DNA of 64,000 nt from Phycisphaerales bacterium (GTDB lineage Bacteria; Planctomycetota; Phycisphaerae; Phycisphaerales; UBA1924). The position numbers were made by a program, and so were the translations under genes. How positions within the stretch are numbered: the first letter of the stretch is position 1; each line of letters opens with the position of its first letter. The notes under the pieces were generated by a model. It worked only from the letters and a program-made list of their open reading frames with translations, did no database searches and had not been told where the DNA came from. The DNA is taken from the NCBI GenBank assembly GCA_020845755.1, contig JADLFE010000014.1:4181-68180 (forward strand), in the 5' to 3' direction. This document shows, in pieces, positions 26,664 to 49,587 of this stretch.

Positions 26664-26775
26664 TCAGATCGGGAGGCGACCAAGCGGGCATCGACGATAG
26701 GCCGGTGGTTGGTGGTTCGTTCGCGGGGCGTGGCAGAGCGCGGCGGCGCGTGGCACGGGCGGGTAGACTCGCGGC

Positions 26776-27609
26776 ATGAGTGGAGATCGCAGGGGACATC
26801 GAGACGGGCCGCGCGAGCCGGGGCGTACGTCAGGACGGAGGCCGGCGTCGGGACCCGTCGGCGGGGCGGTATACCTGGTGACCCGAGAGGCGTGCCGATC
26901 GATCGATCGACTGGCGGTCATTGACTTTGCCGTGCCGTCGATGGTGCTGATGGAGAACGCGGCGCGTCACGCGTCGGACATCGCGTTGGAGATGGTCGAG
27001 AGCATCGACGTACCGCGCATCGTGATCGCGTGCGGCCCGGGCAACAACGGCGGCGATGGGCTGGCGATGGCTCGCCATCTTTCAAACGCGCGCTGCGAGG
27101 TCCTGTGCGTGCTGACGCATCCCGCCGTCGAGTTCCGCGGCGACGGGGCGCTGCAACTCGACATCGTGCGACGGATGAAGATCGAATGCACGAACGATCT
27201 GCAGCAGATCGCCGGGCAGGGCGCGGACCTGGTGGTCGATGCGGTGCTCGGCACGGGGCTCGATCGGGAGATCGGCGGCACGGCGCTGGGCGCGGTTGTG
27301 GAGATCAACCTCGCCCGTGAGCGCGGCTCACGGGTGCTGGCGGTCGACGTGCCGACTGGGCTGGATTGCGATCGCGGGGTCGCGCTGGGGGCCGCGGTGC
27401 GTGCGAATGTCACGGTTTCGTTCGTGGGGATCAAGGCCGGCTTTGCGGAGCTTTCGGCCCAGCAGTTTGTGGGCGACGTGGTGGTCGCGGATATCGGCGC
27501 ACCGCGTGAACTCGTCGAGCGGTTCGGAAAACCGATCACGCGGCCGACGGGCAACGACGCGGAGGCCAGCCGCCCCGCGCGATCCCCGAAACGCCGCGGG
27601 CAAGCGTGA
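26776..27609 (+). CDS. nnrE: NAD(P)H-hydrate epimerase (YjeF N-terminal domain only)
   Basis: 277 aa. Contains LMENAARH, IACGPGNNGGDGLAMARHL and DAVLGTGL. The first ~30 codons are R/G-rich, so a later start is possible. Confidence 0.85.
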   Translation: MSGDRRGHRDGPREPGRTSGRRPASGPVGGAVYLVTREACRSIDRLAVIDFAVPSMVLMENAARHASDIALEMVESIDVPRIVIACGPGNNGGDGLAMARHLSNARCEVLCVLTHPAVEFRGDGALQLDIVRRMKIECTNDLQQIAGQGADLVVDAVLGTGLDREIGGTALGAVVEINLARERGSRVLAVDVPTGLDCDRGVALGAAVRANVTVSFVGIKAGFAELSAQQFVGDVVVADIGAPRELVERFGKPITRPTGNDAEASRPARSPKRRGQA

Positions 27610-39482: not shown

Positions 39483-40394
39483 ATGCCAACGCGCGACCCC
39501 AGACTGGTTTCCCTCCCGCCGCTCCCCCCACGCCCGCGCGACGGGCACAAGGGCACGTTCGGAACTGTCCTGATCGTGGGCGGATCGAGCGATGAATCGA
39601 CGCGGATGGTCGGCGCACCGGCGCTTGCGGGCATGGGCGCGCTCCGGGCAGGCTGCGGCCTGTGCAAACTCATGATGCCCGCGACGATTCTCAACGCCGC
39701 GCTCTCCTCGCTCACCTCCGCCAGCGGGCTGCCGCTCCCGGTTGACGAACAGGATCGGGTGATTCCCTACGAAGCGGTAGCCGCGTTCGACCTGGCGGCG
39801 GAGGACGCGACCAGCATCGTTGTCGGCCCGGGGCTCGGCTCGTCCGACGCGGCGCGGGCGCTGGTGCTTCGAGCCGTGCAGCGGGACAATCCGCCGCTGG
39901 TCATCGATGCTGACGCACTCAACATACTTGCATCGATCCCCGAACTCTTCCGCGACTTCCACGCCGCGGCGATCCTGACGCCCCATCCCGGCGAATACCG
40001 CCGATTGGCGAGTGCATTCCGCATTACGCACGACCCCGTGAACGAGGAATCCCGCTCTCTTGCCGCCGAAGCACTCGCGCAAAAAATCGGCGCCGTCGTC
40101 GTGCTCAAGGGCGCCCGCACCGTCGTCAGCGACGGCCAACGCACGTGGGTCTGCCCCGCGGGCGATCCCTGCATGGCCACCGGCGGAAGCGGCGACGTGC
40201 TCGCGGGCGTCACGGCGGGGCTGATCGCGCAGCACTTCCGCCAAGGACACGATCTGTTTGAATGCGCCCGCGCCGCGGTCGCGGCCCACGCCCTCGCGGG
40301 CGAGCGCTGGGCCGCCACAAACGCCACCGCCGGGATGCTCGCCTCCGAACTGGCGGACCTCATCCCGGCGGGGTTGGACACGCTGCGATGCTGA
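39483..40394 (+). CDS. nnrD: ADP-dependent NAD(P)H-hydrate dehydratase (YjeF C-terminal domain only)
   Basis: 303 aa. Contains HKGTFGTVLIVGGS, GPGLG, DADAL, TPHPGE and ATGGSGDVLAG. Confidence 0.88.
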   Translation: MPTRDPRLVSLPPLPPRPRDGHKGTFGTVLIVGGSSDESTRMVGAPALAGMGALRAGCGLCKLMMPATILNAALSSLTSASGLPLPVDEQDRVIPYEAVAAFDLAAEDATSIVVGPGLGSSDAARALVLRAVQRDNPPLVIDADALNILASIPELFRDFHAAAILTPHPGEYRRLASAFRITHDPVNEESRSLAAEALAQKIGAVVVLKGARTVVSDGQRTWVCPAGDPCMATGGSGDVLAGVTAGLIAQHFRQGHDLFECARAAVAAHALAGERWAATNATAGMLASELADLIPAGLDTLRC

Positions 40395-40395
40395 A

Positions 40396-41016
40396 CTAGT
40401 AATCTTCGTCGAGTTTGCGCGGCGCGACCGTCGATACAAACCGGACCACCGGAGCCTCCAGCGACCCGCCGATGTTCGCGTCCTGCACATCATTGGGCTT
40501 GACCGTCAGATCGATTGTCGCCTCCAGAAGCCGCGGGCCGACATCGTATGTGAGCGTGAATCGAACATCGTCGAGGTTTGTGAGCAGCGGCACCTCCTGG
40601 CGATCCGACTCCACCTCGTTCTCGTAGTCCGTCTGGATGTACCACAACTCATACGGACCGCGATTCGGGTCGTCCGAATCGCGACGCTCCACGCGGACGA
40701 TCCGCTGAAACAGGTTCTCCTCGTCGTTGATCGCGACGAACTCGATGTAGTTGCTGTGCACCGGGTTGAGCGACGCATCGAGCGGATCGGCCGGATACGG
40801 CCCAAAGTCCGTGCCCGTCCTCACCATCGTCATGATTCGAGTCATGACGATGCGCGAGACCACGTGCGTCGACGCTCCCTCGGTGGTGTGCTTGTATCCC
40901 TTGAACGCCGCGTCGAGCGCCACGAGCGTTGCCGTAAACAGCGTCGCCGTGATCGTCAGCGCGATCAGCATCTCCACCAGGCTGAACGCCCGGCGGACGT
41001 GGGAAGAGTTCCTCAC
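40396..41016 (-). CDS. Pseudopilin (prepilin-type N-terminal cleavage/methylation motif)
   Basis: 206 aa. GTG 41014-16 overlaps the stop of the giant upstream gene (GTGA). N-terminus RRA/FSLVEMLIALTITATLF with Glu at +5. Confidence 0.7.
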   Translation of the reverse strand: MRNSSHVRRAFSLVEMLIALTITATLFTATLVALDAAFKGYKHTTEGASTHVVSRIVMTRIMTMVRTGTDFGPYPADPLDASLNPVHSNYIEFVAINDEENLFQRIVRVERRDSDDPNRGPYELWYIQTDYENEVESDRQEVPLLTNLDDVRFTLTYDVGPRLLEATIDLTVKPNDVQDANIGGSLEAPVVRFVSTVAPRKLDEDY

Positions 41017-43892
41017 GGGTGGCCCTCCCGGTAACTGGACGGGATCGACACCACGCTCATGGGAAGCAGGATGCCGTCCGGCAGTTTCATCGTTGTGTTC
41101 ATGCGCACGGTGATATGCCCGTACCCATAGAAGGGCACGGTTGTCGCGCCGGCGGCGCGCTGGGCGTCGGTGGGTGATTCGTCGGGCCCAAGATCCGCCA
41201 GCCCGTCCCCGTCCAGGTCCCAGCCCACGATCTTCTCGCCGTCAACGATCGGGAGGTCGTTGGGATCGAGCGACTCCTCGTCGCCGTCGTCGGGTCCGAA
41301 GTATCCCAGCGTGGTGTTGAAGTTCGCGGGGTTGCCCGCGGGATTGCCGAGCGCGTCGATGAGCGGCGCCTGCCCGTACACCGGGGCAAAGGTCATGAGG
41401 AGCACACCGTCGATGTCGGCGTTTCCGCGCACGTCCATGACGCCGGCGATGATTGCACCGCGCAGTTTCACGTCCTGCGACGTCGGTGAGTTGAAGGTGC
41501 CGATGTCGACCGAGTACTGCGGGAGCATCATTGAACTCTCGGCGATCGCGTCCTTGTCCTCCTCCTGGGGATTGAGATCGGCATCCTCGGGATGATCAGG
41601 ATGCGTCTCGGTGAAGCGTGTAGCGCCCGTAAACTGCAGTTTGTTGCGCGACTGGGTGTAGTTCGTGGGCTGGTCGCTCACGATCGACCCTACGAACAGG
41701 CAGTCGTGGAAGCGGATGTTGTTGGAGAACGCTTTCGTATCCGTCACACGCTTGCCGCTGATGATGAGCGGGTCAGGCAGCGAGTCGTACCCCGCGCCGC
41801 CCGATTGGTTGGCCGGAATGTCCGCCTTGTCCAGCGGGGGATTCGCCATCAGGATCATCTGGTTCGGCGGCTTGGCCGTCGACGGGAGCATCGTCGGATA
41901 ACTCGTTTCGCTGCCCGTATCGCCGTAGATGGAACGAGGCGGGTAGGGCCCCGGACGCCCCGTGGTGGCGTCTATCTGCATCTTGCCGTATTCCGACCAG
42001 AGACGGTGCGTGTTGGTCGTGTAACTTTCAACACGCGTCACTCCCACGAACGTGCAGTTCTTGAACAGGCCGTTGTTCCCCTTGGGGATGACGGCGTCCT
42101 TGAACGTCATGTTTTCATACACGGGGCGGTAGTAATAGTCCGAATAGGCCGGGCTGTTGAAGGGCATTTTCTCGTAGTAGGCGGTCGACCAGTTGTCCGG
42201 GCGGCTGTCGTTGTCGTTGTCCGCGTCGAGACGAAGGTACCGCGGCTGGGAACTCCCCGCGTCGTTCGTCTCCACGTAGGTCGCCAGCGCACCTTCGGAC
42301 ACGCCGAGGTTCGACGCGACCTGCGCCGCGAAGGATTGCCCGTTGGCCGCGTCGTGCAACGCCTCCGTCGCCTCCGCGAAACTCGAGGGAGAAAGATCCG
42401 GGAGCGTGGTATCGTTTGCCTGGTATGTCTGTGGCGCCTGGCCCGCGCCGGGGCGGATCGGGCCCCGCAGTTTGGGATCGTTCGCGCCCTGCGCCGTGGT
42501 CCACGCGCTCTCGCTGGTCTTGAACACAAGGCGTCCGCGCACCTTCGCGTACGCGTCCTTCTTGTCGATCACGCCGTCGCGATAGCCCAGGACCTGGTCC
42601 CGGTAGACCTCGTGCTGAGCGTCATAGTCGTACATGGCCTCGCCGGCGTCCCACCTCCCGTTGCGGTTTTCGTCGTTGAAGCCCGAGACCCCGTTCTTGT
42701 TCCGATCCGGCAGCGCCGAATCGAGGAGGTAGGCCAGCGCATCGTCGCCGGTAAACTCCGGCGACTGGCCGTCGTAGGGCGTGCCATCGGTGAGCGCCGT
42801 CGACAGCACCACCTTGCCGTTGCCGTCCCGGTCAAAGTGATTGATGAAGATGTCAAACTCGTCCACGTACCCATCGCCCGTCACGTCGACGAACGCGCCG
42901 TCGGGATCGCCGTCGTCGTCATAGTCTTCCGTGTTCGACGGGACGCCCGCGCCTTCGATGGGGTGCCCGGAGCGGAGGCGATTGTCGCCGTCGATGTCGT
43001 GCTCCTGCAGGCCCGCGAAGAACGCCGCAAGTTTCTGATCCAGCACCGGGTCCAGGCCCGCAAAGTCCGAGCGGAGCACCAGCGGATCACCATCCGTCCG
43101 GGTGACGTCCGTGAAGCGTGCGCCGAGGTCGCCGACGATGTTCACGTTCTTGCCGATCATCACGCGGCTGGGCGCCACCACCGCCTGATCCACCTTCTTG
43201 GCCAGGCGGTAGTCCTTCATGATCGTCCGGCTGATCGCCGCGGCAGTCGATCCATCGCGGAAGTCGAAGCCCGTCACGATGATGCGCACGTCCGTTCCGT
43301 TCGCCAGCGGGGCGTACACCACCGAAAACGCCGGCGGCGGCGTGCCATTCTCCGCCATCGCCTCCAGCGCGACCGGCGGCGTGAAGAGCCAGCCGTCCTC
43401 GGCGTAGTCGCTTGCGTCCTCGAGCGCCGGAGCCCCCGCGATGATCGGCGCGTCAACGCCCAGTCCCGTCACGATGTTCAGGTCCGCTGCATGAGCGTTC
43501 GCCAACGCTTCCGCGATGCCCGATGGGTCCGAGCCCTCGGCGTATCCGCTCGGAGCGGGGAGCACGATGTACTCGCCCGTGCCGGAAAGATCTCCGTTCC
43601 AGATCTGACGCCCGTACGCGGCATCAACGTTGCTGTGGGAGACAACGAATCTCGCGGCCGCCTCCGCAAGCCGCTTCGCCGCCACCTGCATCCCAGTCTC
43701 CGCCGCGCTCTGCGCTCGGCTTACGTGCAGGTGCGTCGCGGCGGTGCGGATGTTGCCGCGGCTGGCGATCGCCATCGCCGTCGCCAGCGAACCGAACATC
43801 ACCAAGAACATCATCGAGAGCACCGACGCCACACCGCGCTCCCCACTGGAACGCCGACGCGGCCGCGCCCTCCGACCAGAATGTTCGCTCAC
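41013..43892 (-). CDS. Giant GspK/PilX-like minor pseudopilin with EF-hand-like loops and putative beta-helix region
   Basis: Track ORF 41013..43898(-) starts at a TTG. GTG 43890-92 has GAAGGAG 7 nt upstream, giving 959 aa. N-terminus ERGVASVLSMMFLVMFGSLATAMAIAS lacks Glu5, as in GspK/PilX. Acidic loops: DIDGDNRL, DDDGDPDG, DRDGNGKV, DENRNGRWDAGE, DLDGDGLADL. Antisense ORF 41592..44714(+) was rejected. Confidence 0.65.
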   Translation of the reverse strand: MSEHSGRRARPRRRSSGERGVASVLSMMFLVMFGSLATAMAIASRGNIRTAATHLHVSRAQSAAETGMQVAAKRLAEAAARFVVSHSNVDAAYGRQIWNGDLSGTGEYIVLPAPSGYAEGSDPSGIAEALANAHAADLNIVTGLGVDAPIIAGAPALEDASDYAEDGWLFTPPVALEAMAENGTPPPAFSVVYAPLANGTDVRIIVTGFDFRDGSTAAAISRTIMKDYRLAKKVDQAVVAPSRVMIGKNVNIVGDLGARFTDVTRTDGDPLVLRSDFAGLDPVLDQKLAAFFAGLQEHDIDGDNRLRSGHPIEGAGVPSNTEDYDDDGDPDGAFVDVTGDGYVDEFDIFINHFDRDGNGKVVLSTALTDGTPYDGQSPEFTGDDALAYLLDSALPDRNKNGVSGFNDENRNGRWDAGEAMYDYDAQHEVYRDQVLGYRDGVIDKKDAYAKVRGRLVFKTSESAWTTAQGANDPKLRGPIRPGAGQAPQTYQANDTTLPDLSPSSFAEATEALHDAANGQSFAAQVASNLGVSEGALATYVETNDAGSSQPRYLRLDADNDNDSRPDNWSTAYYEKMPFNSPAYSDYYYRPVYENMTFKDAVIPKGNNGLFKNCTFVGVTRVESYTTNTHRLWSEYGKMQIDATTGRPGPYPPRSIYGDTGSETSYPTMLPSTAKPPNQMILMANPPLDKADIPANQSGGAGYDSLPDPLIISGKRVTDTKAFSNNIRFHDCLFVGSIVSDQPTNYTQSRNKLQFTGATRFTETHPDHPEDADLNPQEEDKDAIAESSMMLPQYSVDIGTFNSPTSQDVKLRGAIIAGVMDVRGNADIDGVLLMTFAPVYGQAPLIDALGNPAGNPANFNTTLGYFGPDDGDEESLDPNDLPIVDGEKIVGWDLDGDGLADLGPDESPTDAQRAAGATTVPFYGYGHITVRMNTTMKLPDGILLPMSVVSIPSSYREGHP

Positions 43893-43955
43893 AATCAAGC
43901 TCCTTCACCCCGGTCCACGATCCCGAACATCAAGGGCCGCCCTCCAACGAGGGAA

Positions 43956-44621
43956 CTACGGCACGATCCATGTCACCCGCGCCAACTCCACCGGCTGGAC
44001 GTCGTTGGCACCCTGGAACTCCACCACGACCGTCACGCGGAGCGGGTACTGATCGACCCTACGCCCCGGGAAATCACCGCTCGCATTCTCCTTGAACGCG
44101 TGCTCACGCACCGTCGCGTAGTTGAACGGATCGAGCTTGTCGACATACACCGTCTGCGACCAGCCCGCCATCGGGATCGCGTTTCCATCTTCGTCGCGCA
44201 TCGGGTTGCCGTCCGCGTCCACCGAGGGCACCAAATCGCCCTTGGCGTCGATCGGTCCGTCGAACTCGCCGTCCCCGCCGAACTTCAGGCCGTCGAGGTC
44301 GTCGATGTCATCAAAGTCAGCCGGCGTCACCTCGCCGCCCTCCGCGCCCCATCCGCGGAGAACGTCGCCCTGCGGCGTGCTCTCGACGTAGAGCCCCGTC
44401 ACCGGATCATGGCGAGGCAAGCGCCGCGTCAACTCCCGGATCTCCCCGGCGAGCAGCGTCGCCGTCGCGGCCTGACTCGACCACGTGTTGTTCTTCACAA
44501 ACGCGTTCTGCGCCTCAACGAATGCCAGAACGCCGACCCCGATAATCACCAGCGCCATGCTCGTTTCGAGCAGCGTGAAGCCCCGCCTCGCGCCAAACCG
44601 CTTGCTGAACCCACGCGTCAT
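43956..44621 (-). CDS. Pseudopilin (prepilin-type N-terminal cleavage/methylation motif)
   Basis: Track ORF 43956..44639(-). ATG 44619-21 has GGGAGGAG 8 nt upstream. N-terminus MTRGFSKRFGARRG/FTLLETSMALVIIGVGVLAF. Acidic stretch DFDDIDDLDGLKFGGDGEFDG...DADGNPMRDEDGN. Confidence 0.75.
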   Translation of the reverse strand: MTRGFSKRFGARRGFTLLETSMALVIIGVGVLAFVEAQNAFVKNNTWSSQAATATLLAGEIRELTRRLPRHDPVTGLYVESTPQGDVLRGWGAEGGEVTPADFDDIDDLDGLKFGGDGEFDGPIDAKGDLVPSVDADGNPMRDEDGNAIPMAGWSQTVYVDKLDPFNYATVREHAFKENASGDFPGRRVDQYPLRVTVVVEFQGANDVQPVELARVTWIVP

Positions 44622-44706
44622 GTGCCTGGCTCCTCCCACCGGTTCGCGGACCTGCCGCGCCCGGATACTCCAGCACCCGGCGAGCGCCGAGCCCGGGGAG
44701 CATCGG

Positions 44707-45930
44707 CTACTTGACCACCTGGCTCATCTTGAAGATCGGGAGAATGATCGCCATAGCGATGAAGCCGACGACTGTGCCCATTACGAGGATCATGATGGGC
44801 TCGATCATGCTGGTAACCGCCTTGATGTTCTCTTTGAGCGTCTTGGAGTAGAAGACCGAGATCTCGTCGAGCACCTCTCCCAGCTTACCGGACTCCTCAC
44901 CAGCGGCGATCATCTGCGCCACCGCCCGCGGGAGCAGCGTGTCCTTCTGCAACGCCGCCGTGATCTTCTTGCCCTGCTTGACGCTCGTGTAGATCCGACG
45001 CCACAAACCCCGGAACAACTGGTTGCCCGAGATGTCGCCGGTGATCGCCAGCGTGTCCAGCATCGGCACGCCCGCGTTGATCAACTGGCCCATCGTCTGC
45101 AGCGAACGGCTGATATACAGCGAGCGGAACATCGCCTTCATGATCGGGATCGACAACTTCAACCGGTCGACCCAGAAACTCCCCAGTTCCGTCCGTGTGA
45201 ACGCGTACACGCCACCGCCCAGCACCACGACACCACCCAGGATGAAGTACCAGTACGCAACCATGGTCTTCGAGAGCGTCATCAGGAACTTCGTCGCCCA
45301 CGGCAGGATGTCCTCCTTGCCCTGGAAGACCGCGTAGAACTTGGGCAGCACGAACGTCAGCAGGAACACGGTGACGCACACCGCCAGACACCCGATGATC
45401 GCGGGATAGATCGCCGCGCCGATCACCATCTTCTTGGTCTCGAGCTGCTGCCCGATGTACGCCGCGATCCGGTCCAGCATCTTCGCGAAGGAGCCCGACA
45501 TCTCCGAGGCACGGACCATGTTGATGTACAGGGGGTTGAACAGTTTGGGGTGCTTGGCGATCGCCTCGGAGAACTGTTTGCCGCCCTCGACATCGTTCTT
45601 GAGTTGCTGGATCACCTTCTGGAAGCCGCGGTGCTGGGTCTGCTCCGCGATCCCGTCGAGCGCCGCGCGGAGGTTGATGCCGGCGCGGATCATGACCGCC
45701 AACTGCGTGGTGAAGTCGAGGACGTGCCGCTGATTCGGCTTTCCGGCGTTGAGGTCGCGGAGTTTCTCCATGAGCCCGCCGCCGCCATCGCCGCCGGCGA
45801 TTGCCGAGAGCGACATGACGTGCAGCCCCTGGGCGCGCAGCGCCGCCGCCGCTCCCGACGCGCTGTCCGCCGAGAGCGAGCCGCTCTGAACCTGCCCCGC
45901 CGAATTCCGGACTTGATAGCGATAGTTCAT
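44707..45930 (-). CDS. Type II secretion / type IV pilus platform protein (GspF/PilC family)
   Basis: 407 aa. Two T2SSF repeats (FTTQLAVMIRAGINLRAALDGIAEQ and LQTMGQLINAGVPMLDTLAITGD), 3 TM helices, and C-terminal LPIFKMSQVV. Confidence 0.88.
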   Translation of the reverse strand: MNYRYQVRNSAGQVQSGSLSADSASGAAAALRAQGLHVMSLSAIAGGDGGGGLMEKLRDLNAGKPNQRHVLDFTTQLAVMIRAGINLRAALDGIAEQTQHRGFQKVIQQLKNDVEGGKQFSEAIAKHPKLFNPLYINMVRASEMSGSFAKMLDRIAAYIGQQLETKKMVIGAAIYPAIIGCLAVCVTVFLLTFVLPKFYAVFQGKEDILPWATKFLMTLSKTMVAYWYFILGGVVVLGGGVYAFTRTELGSFWVDRLKLSIPIMKAMFRSLYISRSLQTMGQLINAGVPMLDTLAITGDISGNQLFRGLWRRIYTSVKQGKKITAALQKDTLLPRAVAQMIAAGEESGKLGEVLDEISVFYSKTLKENIKAVTSMIEPIMILVMGTVVGFIAMAIILPIFKMSQVVK

Positions 45931-45997
45931 GGTCGTTCCTGACTTGCGCCGTCGCTCGTCACCCCGTCACATCGTCACATCCACAAACCACGCACCG

Positions 45998-47053
45998 CTA
46001 GGCCGCCAACTGACGCTCCAGTTTGTCTGGGTAGGCCGACTGGGCGATCGCGTCTTCCTTGCTGATCATGCCGTTGAAGTACAGCTCCGCGATGGCGCTG
46101 TCGAGCGAGCACATGCCGATCGCTCGGTTCGTCTCGATCACGTTCGGGATCTCGAAGGTGCGTGCCTCGCGGATCAGGTTGCGAACCGCGGGCGTGCACA
46201 ACAGCACCTCGACCGCCGGCACCATGCCCGGGCGATCGATGCGGCTGAACAGCGTCTGGCTGACCACGCCCTGCAGCGTGTTCGCCAGCATCGAGCGGAT
46301 CTGGTTTTGCTGGCCGGCCGGGTACATATCGATGATTCGTTCCACCGTCTGCGAGGCGTTCACGGTGTGCAGGGTCGAGAGGACCAGGTGACCGGTCTCG
46401 GCCGCCGAGATCGCGAGCGCGGTCGTTTCCAGGTCTCGCATTTCGCCGACCAGGATGATGTCGGGGTCCTGACGCAGCGCGTGCTTCAGGCCCGACGCAA
46501 AGCTCGGCATGTCCTGCCCGAGTTCTCGCTGCTCGATCACGCACTGCTCGCTCTGGAAGGTGTATTCCACCGGGTCCTCGAGCGTGATGATGTGCTTTTT
46601 GTACCGCTGGTTCATCGCCTGGATCATCGCGGCCAGGGTCGTCGACTTGCCCGAGCCCGTGTCGCCGGTCACCAGGACCAGCCCGCGCGGCAGGTACGTC
46701 ATCCGCGCGATCACCTCGGGCAGGTTGAGCGCCGCCAGCGGCGGGACCTTTGTCTTGATGATTCGCATCGCCAGCCCGATTACGCCACGCTGCATGTGCG
46801 CGTTCACGCGGTAGCGGGCAAAGTTCGGCACGGCGTACGAAAAGTCCGCGTCCTTGCACCGCTCGAACGTCGTCTGGCTCTCCGCCGACGCCATCTGCTG
46901 GAAAAACTCCCGGGCCTTGTCCGACGTGAGCACCGGAAGATCCATCGGCGTCATCACCTGGTGGCATCGCACCGTGGGCACCTGCCCCGCGATCAGGTGA
47001 ATGTCCGACGAGTCCATCTCCTGGGCCTTCTTGAGAATGCTGTGCAGGTCCAC
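45998..47053 (-). CDS. pilT: PilT-family (retraction-type) secretion ATPase
   Basis: Track ORF 45998..47209(-). Start moved to GTG 47051-53 (VDLHSILKKAQEMDSSDIHL), with GGGAGG 6 nt upstream, giving 352 aa. Contains Walker A GDTGSGKSTT, ILVGEMRD, GHLVLSTLHT and AVRNLIRE. There is no GspE/PilB N-domain or tetracysteine motif. Confidence 0.88.
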   Translation of the reverse strand: MDLHSILKKAQEMDSSDIHLIAGQVPTVRCHQVMTPMDLPVLTSDKAREFFQQMASAESQTTFERCKDADFSYAVPNFARYRVNAHMQRGVIGLAMRIIKTKVPPLAALNLPEVIARMTYLPRGLVLVTGDTGSGKSTTLAAMIQAMNQRYKKHIITLEDPVEYTFQSEQCVIEQRELGQDMPSFASGLKHALRQDPDIILVGEMRDLETTALAISAAETGHLVLSTLHTVNASQTVERIIDMYPAGQQNQIRSMLANTLQGVVSQTLFSRIDRPGMVPAVEVLLCTPAVRNLIREARTFEIPNVIETNRAIGMCSLDSAIAELYFNGMISKEDAIAQSAYPDKLERQLAA

Positions 47054-47212
47054 CCGGGCCTCCCGTGCCGGCGTTGCAACAGGCGCAAACGCGCCGAGCC
47101 GGCTCGCCTCAGCATCGGCCCGAGTGCGCTCGTAGTTCACCGTGCCCGGCCGCAGCACACTAACGTCGCCGCGCAATCTCGGGCGCAACGCCCGGCGCAG
47201 ACCGCACAACCC

Positions 47213-47674
47213 TCACCCGCGTCGCGACCTCACCAGTTCCTCACGGGCCAGGACCGCGAGTTGGTCGCACCGCTCGTTCTCCGGGTGTTCGTTGTGCCCG
47301 CGGATCCAGTGAAACTTCACGTCGTGTTGCGACGCCAGTTCATCCAGCCTCATCCACAGATCCTGGTTCTTCACGGGCTTCTTGTCGGCCGTCTTCCAGC
47401 CCCGCGCCTTCCACGATTTCAGCCACTCACGCAGGCCATCGAGCACGTACCGCGAATCGCTGGTCAGATCGACATGCGACCTCGATTTCAGGAGCGTGAG
47501 CCCCTCGATCACTGCCATGAGTTCCATGCGGTTGTTGGTCGTCTCGATCTCCGCGCCCGCGCGCTCGATCGACTTGCCCGAGGCCGGATGCCGGAGAACA
47601 AACGCCCAGCCTCCGGGCCCGGGATTGCCGGAGCAGGCCCCGTCGGTAAACAACTCCACCCGCGGCAGGCTCAC
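47213..47674 (-). CDS. rnhA: Ribonuclease HI
   Basis: Track ORF 47213..47755(-). Start moved to GTG 47672-74, which overlaps the upstream stop (GTGA). Contains ELFTDGACSGNPGPGGWA, TNNRMEL, SDSRYV and HNEHPENERCDQLA. Confidence 0.9.
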   Translation of the reverse strand: MSLPRVELFTDGACSGNPGPGGWAFVLRHPASGKSIERAGAEIETTNNRMELMAVIEGLTLLKSRSHVDLTSDSRYVLDGLREWLKSWKARGWKTADKKPVKNQDLWMRLDELASQHDVKFHWIRGHNEHPENERCDQLAVLAREELVRSRRG

Positions 47675-49587
47675 GCAGGGCTCCCCGCACGCTCCACCGC
47701 CATCGCGTACGCCGTCTCGTATTCGTGGACGAGACGCGACCAGTCGAACTCCCACGACACACGGTCGACCTGGTTCCGGAGCATGATGCGGTCACGCCGC
47801 TCCAGCCGGCAGAACGCGAGCAATCGCGCCGCGAGGTCCGCCGACGCGTCGTGAAAACTGCGCCCACGCCGTCCCAGCACCATCAGGCCGCGCCGATCGT
47901 GATCGTCAAGGTTTTCCTGGACATACTTCCCGAAGCCCGCCAGATCACTCGTCACGCTCGGCACGGCCATCGCCGCGCACTCCAAGGGCGTATACCCCCA
48001 GGGCTCGTACTGGCTCGGGAACAACCCGAGGTGGCACCCGCGCACGAACTGGTCGTACTCCATGCCCCACAGCGGGCTCGTCGGCGTGATAAATTCGGGG
48101 TGATACACAACCTTGACCGGGTCGTCCTTGTGATTGAAGAGTCCCAGCGTCCGCAGGTGATTGAGCACCGGATCGTTGGCATCATCCTGCAGGATGTGCG
48201 TCGTCACCATCGGCAGGCACGGCTGGCGCAACGCCTGCTGCGTGCGCCGATAGCGGAGCTGCCAGTATTCATCGATCAGGTCGTCCAACTTCAATTTCTC
48301 GCCCGACGCCGCTCGGCGCACCAGGCGGTCCTGGACATAATCCGTGATGGTCTCGCAGACGCGTGAAAGCTCCTCGAACACGCCGCGCTTCTCGAGCGCC
48401 AGAGGGTTGATCGACTTGCTCGCCCGATTGCTGATGATGAAGAAGACGATCGTCCCGCCAGCGAGTTCCTTCTCGTTCGAGCGAGCCTTTAACTCGGCGT
48501 TGAGCCTCGCCATCGCCTCGAGGCACACGTCAAAGCCCTTGTTCTTGGGCTCGAACCGCCCGCTCGTGAAGAGGTACAGGGTGCGATCAAGGTCAAACGA
48601 ATAACTCGGGAAGAAGTGACCCATCACGAAGCGATGGATCAGTTCCTTCGACTCACCGTGCAAGCGCTGCTGATCCGGGCCCTTGTTGTAATGCCCGATG
48701 TGCAGCCCGTTGGGCGTCACGACATCGACCTTCCGCCCCAGGAGCGTCGCGCACTCCTCCGCGGTCACGCTCGACACCGTCGTGAACACGTGAGCCCCGT
48801 GCGCACACGCCCGCTCGACCCCGTGCTGCGTCCGGATGTTGTACCTCTCCGCCGCACGAGCGTTGTCGATCCACGGGAGCACGTCGTAGAAATCATCCTC
48901 GCTGCTGGCGATATACCGCCCAAGCAGCGTCGCGTGCGTCGTGAACACCGTGGCCACCGGCAATTGATGCCGCCTGATCTTCGGGATCGCCAGGCCCGCC
49001 ATCCACTCGTGGAAGTGCGCCACGAACGCCGGTTTCCCAGCCGTCCGCGTACCTGGAGCCAGGTCCGCATGATCCGCCAACGCCTTCATCAGTCGGAACA
49101 CTGCTTCCGCGAACGATACCACCCCGTCGATCAGCCAGTCGTGCCCCGGGAACTGCAGGCCGTGATGCTCCCAGTACTCATACTTCGCTGCGTCCAGTGC
49201 CCCGCTCCCACGCCAGTGCTCGAGCAGGATGACGCGCGGCTTGCCGGGAATGAGCCATCGCCCGTGGTGGGCTGTAATGCCCTGGGCCGCCAGGTCGCTG
49301 ATCGCACGCCCGACCCACGCGCCGGGACGCTGCGCCTCAAACTCAAGCCCCGCTTTCGCCGGCTCGTACGGCCCGACGAGGCAGTACCGATCGCCCCAGC
49401 GCTCGACCATCGGCGGCGCCTTCGACCGGATCACCTGGTAAATCCCGCCGACCTGGTTGCAGACTTCCCAAGCCACCTCGAGCAGCAGCGGCGCCACCGG
49501 CGCACGCACCACTCCATCCGTCGCGTCACCCGATCGCCCGACCGACTGCCCAATCGAATGTGTTGTCCCGTGCGCACCAGATTCCAT
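47671..49587 (-). CDS. GT3-family (animal/fungal-type) glycogen synthase
   Basis: 638 aa. Contains LLEVAWEVCNQVGGIYQVIRSKA, HFHEWMAG, TTHATLLGRY, TPNGL, GRFEPKNKGFD and LFPSQYEPWGYTPLECAAMAVPSVTSDLAGFG. This pattern matches GT3 rather than the GT5 GlgA family. Confidence 0.8.
   Translation of the reverse strand: MESGAHGTTHSIGQSVGRSGDATDGVVRAPVAPLLLEVAWEVCNQVGGIYQVIRSKAPPMVERWGDRYCLVGPYEPAKAGLEFEAQRPGAWVGRAISDLAAQGITAHHGRWLIPGKPRVILLEHWRGSGALDAAKYEYWEHHGLQFPGHDWLIDGVVSFAEAVFRLMKALADHADLAPGTRTAGKPAFVAHFHEWMAGLAIPKIRRHQLPVATVFTTHATLLGRYIASSEDDFYDVLPWIDNARAAERYNIRTQHGVERACAHGAHVFTTVSSVTAEECATLLGRKVDVVTPNGLHIGHYNKGPDQQRLHGESKELIHRFVMGHFFPSYSFDLDRTLYLFTSGRFEPKNKGFDVCLEAMARLNAELKARSNEKELAGGTIVFFIISNRASKSINPLALEKRGVFEELSRVCETITDYVQDRLVRRAASGEKLKLDDLIDEYWQLRYRRTQQALRQPCLPMVTTHILQDDANDPVLNHLRTLGLFNHKDDPVKVVYHPEFITPTSPLWGMEYDQFVRGCHLGLFPSQYEPWGYTPLECAAMAVPSVTSDLAGFGKYVQENLDDHDRRGLMVLGRRGRSFHDASADLAARLLAFCRLERRDRIMLRNQVDRVSWEFDWSRLVHEYETAYAMAVERAGSPA

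Follow-up and report, generated by a model that had tools for sequence, protein, structure and literature searches.

The 64,000-nucleotide stretch of contig JADLFE010000014.1 from a Phycisphaerales bacterium analysed here (referred to as the window) carries, at positions 40396-47053 of its minus strand, five co-directional open reading frames (ORFs) that link a PilT-family ATPase (PilT*) to a PilC/GspF-type inner-membrane platform (PilC2) and three pilin-like proteins (ppA, BIG and ppB), in that order. This five-gene module is a selected operon conserved in the Phycisphaerales, and it is somewhat probable that it provides the retraction motor, with its own platform and a priming or tip complex, of a type IVa pilus-like filament whose core, including an extension ATPase of the PilB/GspE class, is encoded elsewhere. 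In the general view of type IV filaments, PilB/GspE-class enzymes build the fibres, PilT-class enzymes only disassemble them, and PilT is a dispensable paralogue. In this operon PilT is coupled to its own platform and to a putative tip complex, an arrangement that is invariant across an order of Planctomycetota. Its parts come from known families and the operon is not categorically new; the invariant pilT-pilC-pilin-giant pilin-pilin gene order, the split between two PilC paralogues and the loss variants described below match no described system.

A metagenome scan with PilC2 as the query yielded 80 loci, in 79 of which the genes present form a contiguous run in the order PilT*-PilC2-ppA-BIG-ppB. 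All five genes occur in 46 loci, and in every one of these 46 loci spanning the module all five ORFs are intact. The same order is kept in five loci of further assemblies recovered by exact look-up (L006, L007 and L118-L120), as well as in a Logan contig with the window's own PilC2 sequence (L002). The order being kept in 79 of the 80 loci, the module is therefore a conserved Phycisphaerales operon, and the concern, raised when the genes were first described, that they might not be syntenic in relatives can be set aside. Median identity to the window is 83% for PilT* (66 loci) and 74% for PilC2 (80 loci), and 53%, 56% and 53% for ppA, BIG and ppB, respectively, a pattern expected when a cytoplasmic motor is compared with surface-exposed parts. 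The flanks are mostly housekeeping genes, with rnhA in 29 loci and the NAD(P)HX dehydratase gene (Nnr) in 18, and other contexts are found too; no secretin, PilB or PilM lies within 10 kb of the module in the 80 metagenome loci. The sole rearranged locus among the 80 (L078, Ga0105044_10003488) has ppA-BIG-ppB inverted, with a gene for a 594-aa TPR protein between the pilins and PilT*-PilC2. Another variant is present in CP071923.1, labelled Leptolyngbya sp. 15MV, which has Phycisphaerales-type genes (L121:7200-12600): the glycogen synthase gene is truncated, rnhA is present, PilT* is intact and PilC2 is shortened to 282 aa, after which come unrelated genes, with no ppA-BIG-ppB. Either the module has decayed here, or the assembly is chimeric or bears the wrong label.

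By its sequence, PilT* is an ordinary PilT-class ATPase and appears catalytically intact. It matches the PilT family model TIGR01420 (pilT_fam) with 434.2 bits (cut-off 319.1) over profile positions 2-341 of 343, as against only 140-150 bits for the PilB and GspE models (GspE 149 bits, cut-off 630). Alignment with the solved PilTs of P. aeruginosa, T. thermophilus and A. aeolicus (3jvu, 5fl3 and 2gsz) runs end to end at 294-306 bits, compared with 248 bits for PilU and approximately 100-107 bits, in the ATPase core only, for PilB/GspE. Identity to these three PilTs is 43-44%, those three being 47-53% identical among themselves, and identity to a second PilT-family paralogue, from a Phycisphaera-like genome, is only 33%. 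The protein carries the motifs GDTGSGKSTT, DPDIILVGEMRD, GHLVLSTLHT and AVRNLIRE, with Walker B and the His box conserved, and has neither a CxxC pair nor a match to MshEN or T2SSE_N. The AIRNLIRE motif is specific to PilT and absent from PilU, and among the 120 PilT* orthologues listed it appears as AVRNLIRE in 109 and AVRNLVRE in 11. Assignment to the PilT family, the motifs quoted for it, and the lack of GspE/PilB N-terminal domains and of a tetracysteine motif were thus rightly anticipated in the original prediction, which had also named an ordinary PilT as the outcome that would speak against its proposal; this is, by sequence, what the enzyme is. A Tad- or Com-type system was considered and rejected. 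The score against the TadA-family model TIGR03819 is 43 bits for a cut-off of 373, which places PilT* outside the TadA/CpaF clade. In the window's PilT* and in all 120 orthologues listed (P0241-P0360), the Walker A motif is GDTGSGKST, Asp occupying the position that is Pro in the PilT/PilB/GspE references compared.

The second gene encodes, as proposed earlier, a GspF/PilC platform protein, with a complete, two-repeat Pfam T2SSF match of 204 bits. Its best NCBIfam model is GspF (TIGR02120; 326 bits, under the equivalog cut-off of 424), followed by PilC models at 254-298 bits. PilC2 is only 36-39% identical to PilC1, the platform linked to PilB in relatives, and the two platforms are therefore old paralogues. 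Both small pilin-like proteins, recognised from the outset by their RRG/FTLLE and RRA/FSLVE junctions, have prepilin N-termini with Glu5 and match N_methyl/TIGR02532. In addition, ppA shows a weak match to the PilV N-terminus (30 bits, below cut-off) and a conserved acidic motif, D-x-D-D-x-D-G. Beyond the prepilin N-terminus nothing was recognisable in either protein in Pfam, NCBIfam and PDB profile searches, the PDB matches of both profiles being pilin N-terminal helices only, and the single-sequence AlphaFold2 model of ppB was unusable (predicted local distance difference test, pLDDT, 44).

BIG, encoded between these two proteins in an invariant slot, constitutes a new protein family, whose fold is predicted with confidence and has no known structural relative. 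Its hydrophobic N-terminal segment, ERG/VASVLSMMFLVMFGSL, has Ser at position +5, so that Glu5 is absent; a Glu5-less hydrophobic N-terminus is typical of the very-tip subunit of type II secretion systems and type IV pili (GspK). The AlphaFold2 model, built with 66 homologues, reaches a pLDDT of 85 and a predicted template modelling score of 0.82, and it predicts a long N-terminal helix, with helices at 16-43 and 51-80, and then beta-rich domains. Many Asp, Asn and Gly residues are invariant. BIG belongs to no Pfam or NCBIfam family, its N-terminal 141 aa have no match even at E<=1, and a Foldseek search of the model against the PDB found no fold relative (best E-value 0.9). There are 661 homologues, of which the best 120 show 56-91% identity and without exception bear the label Phycisphaerales, Phycisphaerae or Planctomycetota, and a profile search finds 485 representatives at 50% clustering, shorter relatives included. 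BIG had been described as GspK/PilX-like, a label that does not hold as a family assignment, given that neither T2SSK nor PilX_N nor any Pfam, NCBIfam or PDB-fold match was obtained; it expresses an analogy of position together with the Glu5-less N-terminal helix. By the same analogy, BIG is a candidate tip subunit or adhesin.

The remaining machinery of a pilus or secretion system is not encoded in the window. Six-frame translation of the 64 kb revealed no second T2SSE-family ATPase, no further class III signal peptides, no homologues of a relative's secretin, TPR pilotin or T2SSG-type pilin, no PilM, PilN, PilO, PilP-like protein, PilB or PilC1, and no prepilin-peptidase motif of the GGGDVK type; nor did Pfam scans of ten further mid-sized ORFs of the window detect any related family. 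GspC, GspL and GspM, for which no six-frame query was made, are absent from the Pfam scans of the module proteins, both flanking genes and these ten ORFs, and from the Pfam records of genes within about 10 kb of the module on contigs with the window's own PilC2. The earlier statement that the window has no extension ATPase, secretin or PilM/N/O, and neither a prepilin peptidase nor a short major pilin, is borne out by these searches. Accordingly, the window holds no complete type IVa pilus, PilMNOP and a PilQ secretin being missing, and no type II secretion system (T2SS), as the ATPase is not GspE, the GspF match lies below its cut-off and the Pfam scans found no GspC/L/M.

The connection with outer-membrane and fibre components was found in a complete Phycisphaeraceae genome (CP054186.1, here H1_PLA1), in which the module forms the 3' end of a larger cluster. 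From the 5' end, this cluster comprises a T2SSG-type pilin, the prepilin pp142a, pp142b (142 aa, no prepilin signal), the prepilin pp181, an 884-aa secretin and a 407-aa TPR lipoprotein, and then the module; the pilins beside the module match Pfam T2SSG. PilT* is the only ATPase in a region that reaches 10 kb beyond the secretin on the upstream side and 10 kb beyond BIG on the downstream side. A genome scan with this secretin returned 19 loci. In eight of them (L016-L021, L023 and L025), an orthologous secretin-TPR pair lies inside a full cluster of the type IVa pilus, with secretins 54-69% and TPR proteins 49-59% identical to the L025 pair across these loci. The first part of the full cluster holds pilins, PilM, PilN, PilO, a PilP/GspC-like protein, secretin and TPR; the second part holds a histidine kinase, a response regulator, HD-GYP and STAS proteins, PilB and PilC1, with RecJ on the opposite strand. 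The same cluster was confirmed on five further contigs (L108-L112), its pilin-to-PilP part was seen in L026, where the contig ends within the secretin gene, and RecJ adjoins PilC1 in every full cluster whose locus extends beyond PilC1. No homologue of ppA, BIG or ppB occurs in the full clusters, and the window shares no synteny with their RecJ-side flank.

Several loci depart from this organisation in the genes attached to the secretin-TPR pair. In H1_PLA1, PilMNOP is missing between the last pilin and the secretin, as is the segment from the histidine kinase to PilB-PilC1; PilT*-PilC2 adjoin the TPR gene instead. Locus L022 (JADFOF010000045.1, 1-6700) reads pilin-secretin-TPR-RecJ, with 10 nt between TPR and RecJ, and both PilMNOP and the histidine kinase-response regulator-HD-GYP-STAS-PilB-PilC1 segment are precisely missing, so that it looks like a natural deletion variant of the full cluster. 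L010-L013 have an isolated secretin-TPR pair, and in L015 the orthologous pair is accompanied by a non-orthologous PilB (40% identical; 562 aa) and platform (26%). The secretin-TPR pair is thus a stable core to which lineages attach different motor/platform pairs, the slot in H1_PLA1 being filled by PilT*-PilC2. Between them, the full clusters and the module account for every component of a type IVa pilus in this lineage; PilT, a further platform and the sole candidates for tip pilins come from the module. The original option of an accessory module that plugs into a core encoded elsewhere thereby gains support for the outer-membrane and fibre parts, through the H1_PLA1 linkage and the orthologous secretin in full clusters; a separate extension motor in this genome is what we infer, as are retraction and the tip-complex role.

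Three side observations concern these loci. The last ~95 residues of the H1_PLA1 secretin (L007:2420-5074, equal to L009:10001-12655) match the globular domain of the adjacent T2SSG-type pilins at 35% identity (E 2e-13), and this pseudopilin-like C-terminal domain is absent from the other 18 secretin loci; to judge by the alignment, the protein effectively fuses a secretin to a pseudopilin. The PilB of the full clusters, 570-580 aa long with two CxxC pairs and an MshEN domain that binds cyclic di-GMP (c-di-GMP), is always preceded by the genes for histidine kinase, response regulator, HD-GYP phosphodiesterase and STAS protein (L025:13642-19235 and equivalents in L016-L023 and L108-L112), which suggests a built-in c-di-GMP control module of pilus extension. 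In a metagenome-assembled genome labelled Phycisphaera mikurensis (L014:1510-9723), the genes for a VWA/VIT protein, secretin and TPR are preceded, in divergent orientation, by three others, which encode a divergent GspE-like protein of 610 aa (only 179 bits with the GspE model), a second ATPase of the PilT family (409 aa) and a WXG100-like protein; this may represent a further variant of filament system.

Taken together, the operon can be pictured as the inner-membrane and tip half of a Phycisphaerales-specific filament machine that would resemble a type IVa pilus or T2SS. PilC2 would be the dedicated platform paralogue on which PilT* docks to drive filament disassembly, that is, retraction. 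By analogy with GspI-J-K and with PilV-W-X/PilY1, ppA, BIG and ppB may form a priming complex that ends up at the filament tip, with the Glu5-less, 959-aa BIG in the outermost position, where it would be likely to act as an adhesin or to bind a ligand. The T2SSG-type fibre pilins, the secretin, the TPR lipoprotein (a pilotin candidate) and the prepilin peptidase would be encoded elsewhere in the genome, as would a PilB/GspE-class ATPase driving extension. Such a division is compatible with what is known of type IV filaments, in which type IVa pilus loci are typically scattered, PilB-type assembly ATPases are considered essential in all families, and PilT is an often-lost paralogue (PMC6668835).

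A number of observations weigh against this retraction reading. Canonically, PilB and PilT share one PilC, and a retraction ATPase with its own platform paralogue is non-canonical. The window holds no PilB/GspE-class ATPase, nor does one lie within 10 kb of the module in the roughly 90 related loci, and at the conserved secretin locus both H1_PLA1 and L022 lack PilMNOP and the segment that ends in PilB-PilC1. Moreover, PilT* orthologues are carried by nine near-complete contigs of 5.09, 4.46, 4.14, 3.80, 3.79, 3.61, 3.49, 3.36 and 2.91 Mb, and none of the nine occurs among the best 120 L025-type PilB clusters and their expanded members, which argues that most module-bearing genomes have no close orthologue of the full-cluster PilB. 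That comparison reaches close L025-type orthologues only (at least about 66% identical, among the best 120), a list that recovers the PilB of five to six of seven independently found full-cluster genomes; a PilB orthologue of H1_PLA1 is predicted at about 66-68% identity to the query, near the lower limit of the list, and the nine module-bearing genomes are not phylogenetically independent. Conversely, three contigs that carry PilB, of 2.87, 2.76 (circular) and 1.52 Mb, do not figure among the PilT* and BIG matches listed, and no contig is shared by the BIG, PilB and PilT* matches listed (the best 120 of each), a result that is only suggestive. All look-ups of PilB on large contigs gave the full PilMNOPQ...PilB-PilC1-RecJ cluster without the module, and the NCBI accession blocks of the PilT* and PilB clusters compared had no genome in common. 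A PilB cluster and a module from PRJEB19935 (L110 and L113), considered as parts of one organism, could not be linked (GC 0.626 against 0.667; tetranucleotide distance rank 42 of 97), and the look-up of PilT* P0336 in search of a PilB link led to an unrelated DDBJ metagenome-assembled genome.

These observations are what an alternative would build on, in which PilB-PilC1 and PilMNOP were lost in many Phycisphaerales and PilT* became a sole, bifunctional motor that powers both assembly and retraction of a machine made of PilT*, PilC2, the ppA-BIG-ppB tip pilins, T2SSG-type pilins, secretin and pilotin. That the PilT-like enzyme might be the sole motor was also an option of the original prediction, and we consider the alternative unlikely, at a level that still merits attention. 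It is favoured by H1_PLA1, whose secretin/pilin cluster has PilT*-PilC2 where other lineages have PilB-PilC1, with no PilMNOP or other ATPase, by the precise double absence in L022, by the joining of the secretin-TPR pair to non-orthologous motor/platform pairs across lineages (L015), by the nine contigs from which no L025-type PilB was listed, by the unusual Walker A shared by all PilT* orthologues listed, and by the dedicated platform. To our knowledge, however, no PilT-class enzyme drives assembly or is bifunctional, PilT* is an ordinary PilT by sequence that keeps the AIRNLIRE-type motif, and the PilB comparison has the reach just described, with the H1_PLA1 orthologue expected near its limit and other PilB/GspE types present in the order (610 aa in L014, 562 aa in L015). 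From the literature, a precedent exists in the Tad CpaF, one ATPase that performs both extension and retraction (PMC6920026, PMC12019362), whereas PilB is regarded as essential in all families (PMC6668835). CpaF resembles what a sole motor would need, in that one ATPase and one platform set serve both directions; it belongs to another ATPase clade than PilT*, and the Tad platform is TadB/TadC.

Considerably less probable is a T2SS-like secretion pseudopilus with the module as its core, in which ppA, BIG and ppB would be the counterparts of GspI, GspK and GspJ and the T2SSG-type pilins a short piston under the secretin, even though GspF is the best NCBIfam match of the platform, the pilins adjoining the H1_PLA1 module match Pfam T2SSG, and a major-type pilin, pp181 and three pilin-like proteins, one of them large and Glu5-less, parallel GspG-H-I-J-K. 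The GspF score is under the equivalog cut-off, neither GspE nor GspC, GspL or GspM appeared in the Pfam/NCBIfam scans (the latter three without a six-frame query), BIG, roughly three times as large as GspK, does not match T2SSK, and in relatives the orthologous secretin is grouped with PilMNOP, the type IVa arrangement. We know of no T2SS that uses PilT, and the motor of the module is PilT-class rather than GspE. PilT has been lost in T2SS (PMC6668835). A reading of the operon as what is left of a pilB-pilT-pilC locus, in decay or without function, is scarcely credible and is in practice refuted by the conservation of the module. The missing pilB, in an order that is pilB-pilT-pilC in several other phyla, and the truncated PilC2 without pilin genes of CP071923.1 could be read in this way; yet the five ORFs are intact wherever a locus spans the module, PilT* and PilC2 are better conserved than BIG, the catalytic motifs of PilT* are invariant, and the module is kept in several different genomic contexts.

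Among described systems, the type IVa pilus, with its FimU-PilVWXE and PilY1 priming/tip complex and its PilF/Tgl pilotin, has the following in common with the operon: a PilT above the family cut-off, a PilC-type platform, Glu5-containing prepilins with the class III signal, a large protein of non-canonical type whose gene lies among those of the minor pilins, a scattered multi-locus organisation, and a secretin that in relatives is linked to PilMNOP, a TPR lipoprotein and PilB. It differs in that the PilT of the module shares a single invariant operon with a PilC paralogue of its own and the tip pilins, with no pilB nearby, that BIG is itself pilin-like in its N-terminal helix and lacks homology or a fold match to PilY1, PilX or PilC1, and that some Phycisphaerales secretin loci have lost PilMNOP and PilB-PilC1. 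The T2SS pseudopilus is alike in its platform model, in the T2SSG-type pilins and secretin next to the H1_PLA1 module, and in a candidate tip set of three proteins, one of which is large and lacks Glu5. The order pilB-pilT-pilC is known from Myxococcus, Geobacter and cyanobacteria; in the module, too, pilT directly precedes pilC and has the same orientation, but pilB is absent, and the PilB of the Phycisphaerales adjoins PilC1 at another locus or in other genomes. In Thermus thermophilus, ComZ is a large pilin-like protein with a big beta-rich insertion that is encoded among small minor pilins and has been proposed as a tip receptor for ligands. BIG is similarly encoded between small minor pilins, as in the ComZ-PilA2 set; it is larger, restricted to Planctomycetota, and without a match in the PDB search.

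If it is true that these genomes lack any assembly ATPase, this would be the first PilT-driven assembly machine and a natural test of what sets motor directionality. Even on a conservative view, novelty lies in a lineage-specific split of type IVa pilus functions between two PilC paralogues, in a family of pilin-like proteins of about 960 aa as a candidate adhesin or uptake receptor, and in a secretin fused to a pseudopilin domain. Surface fibres of Planctomycetota have been implicated in polymer binding, and a search of the literature on the pili of Phycisphaerae or Planctomycetes found nothing specific.

Features of the operon and its leader region in the window
Feature	Position	Strand	Description
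PilT*	45998-47053	(-)	351 aa, GTG start, PilT-family hexameric ATPase
PilC2	44707-45930	(-)	407 aa, PilC/GspF-type inner-membrane platform
ppA	43956-44621	(-)	221 aa, minor-pilin-like prepilin, RRG/FTLLE
BIG	41013-43892	(-)	959 aa, pilin-like, N-terminal hydrophobic helix without Glu5
ppB	40396-41016	(-)	206 aa, minor-pilin-like prepilin, RRA/FSLVE; start overlaps the BIG stop
Candidate promoter/leader region	47054-47212	(-)	159-nt gap between rnhA and PilT*; role inferred only

The coordinates agree with the layout described originally, five co-directional minus-strand genes with gaps of 67, 85 and 63 nt and one GTGA overlap, which is the 4-nt overlap of BIG and ppB; the length of the ATPase had been given as 352 aa, the stop codon having been counted. 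Shine-Dalgarno-like GGAGG/AAGGAG sequences precede all four non-overlapping starts, and GC content at third codon positions is 0.85-0.90 in the five frames (DNA 65% GC), as expected of real genes; chance ORFs were rejected. The gap 5' of PilT* is the largest on that strand and is likely the promoter and leader region of the operon, although promoter, terminator and Rfam scans detected no sigma-70-type promoter, terminator or Rfam element in it. Upstream, on the same strand, are rnhA and a glycosyltransferase family 3 (GT3) glycogen synthase, and downstream is the convergent NAD(P)HX dehydratase (Nnr). A mobile island was rejected, the flanks being housekeeping genes (glycogen synthase-rnhA upstream, Nnr downstream) with no compositional break. 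Immediately 5' of the operon, at window positions 47213-49587, the gene for the GT3 glycogen synthase, which is of eukaryote type, shares 4 nt with rnhA, and the NAD(P)HX epimerase (YjeF_N, 26767-27609) and dehydratase (Carb_kinase, 39483-40394) are separate genes of the window, 12 kb apart.

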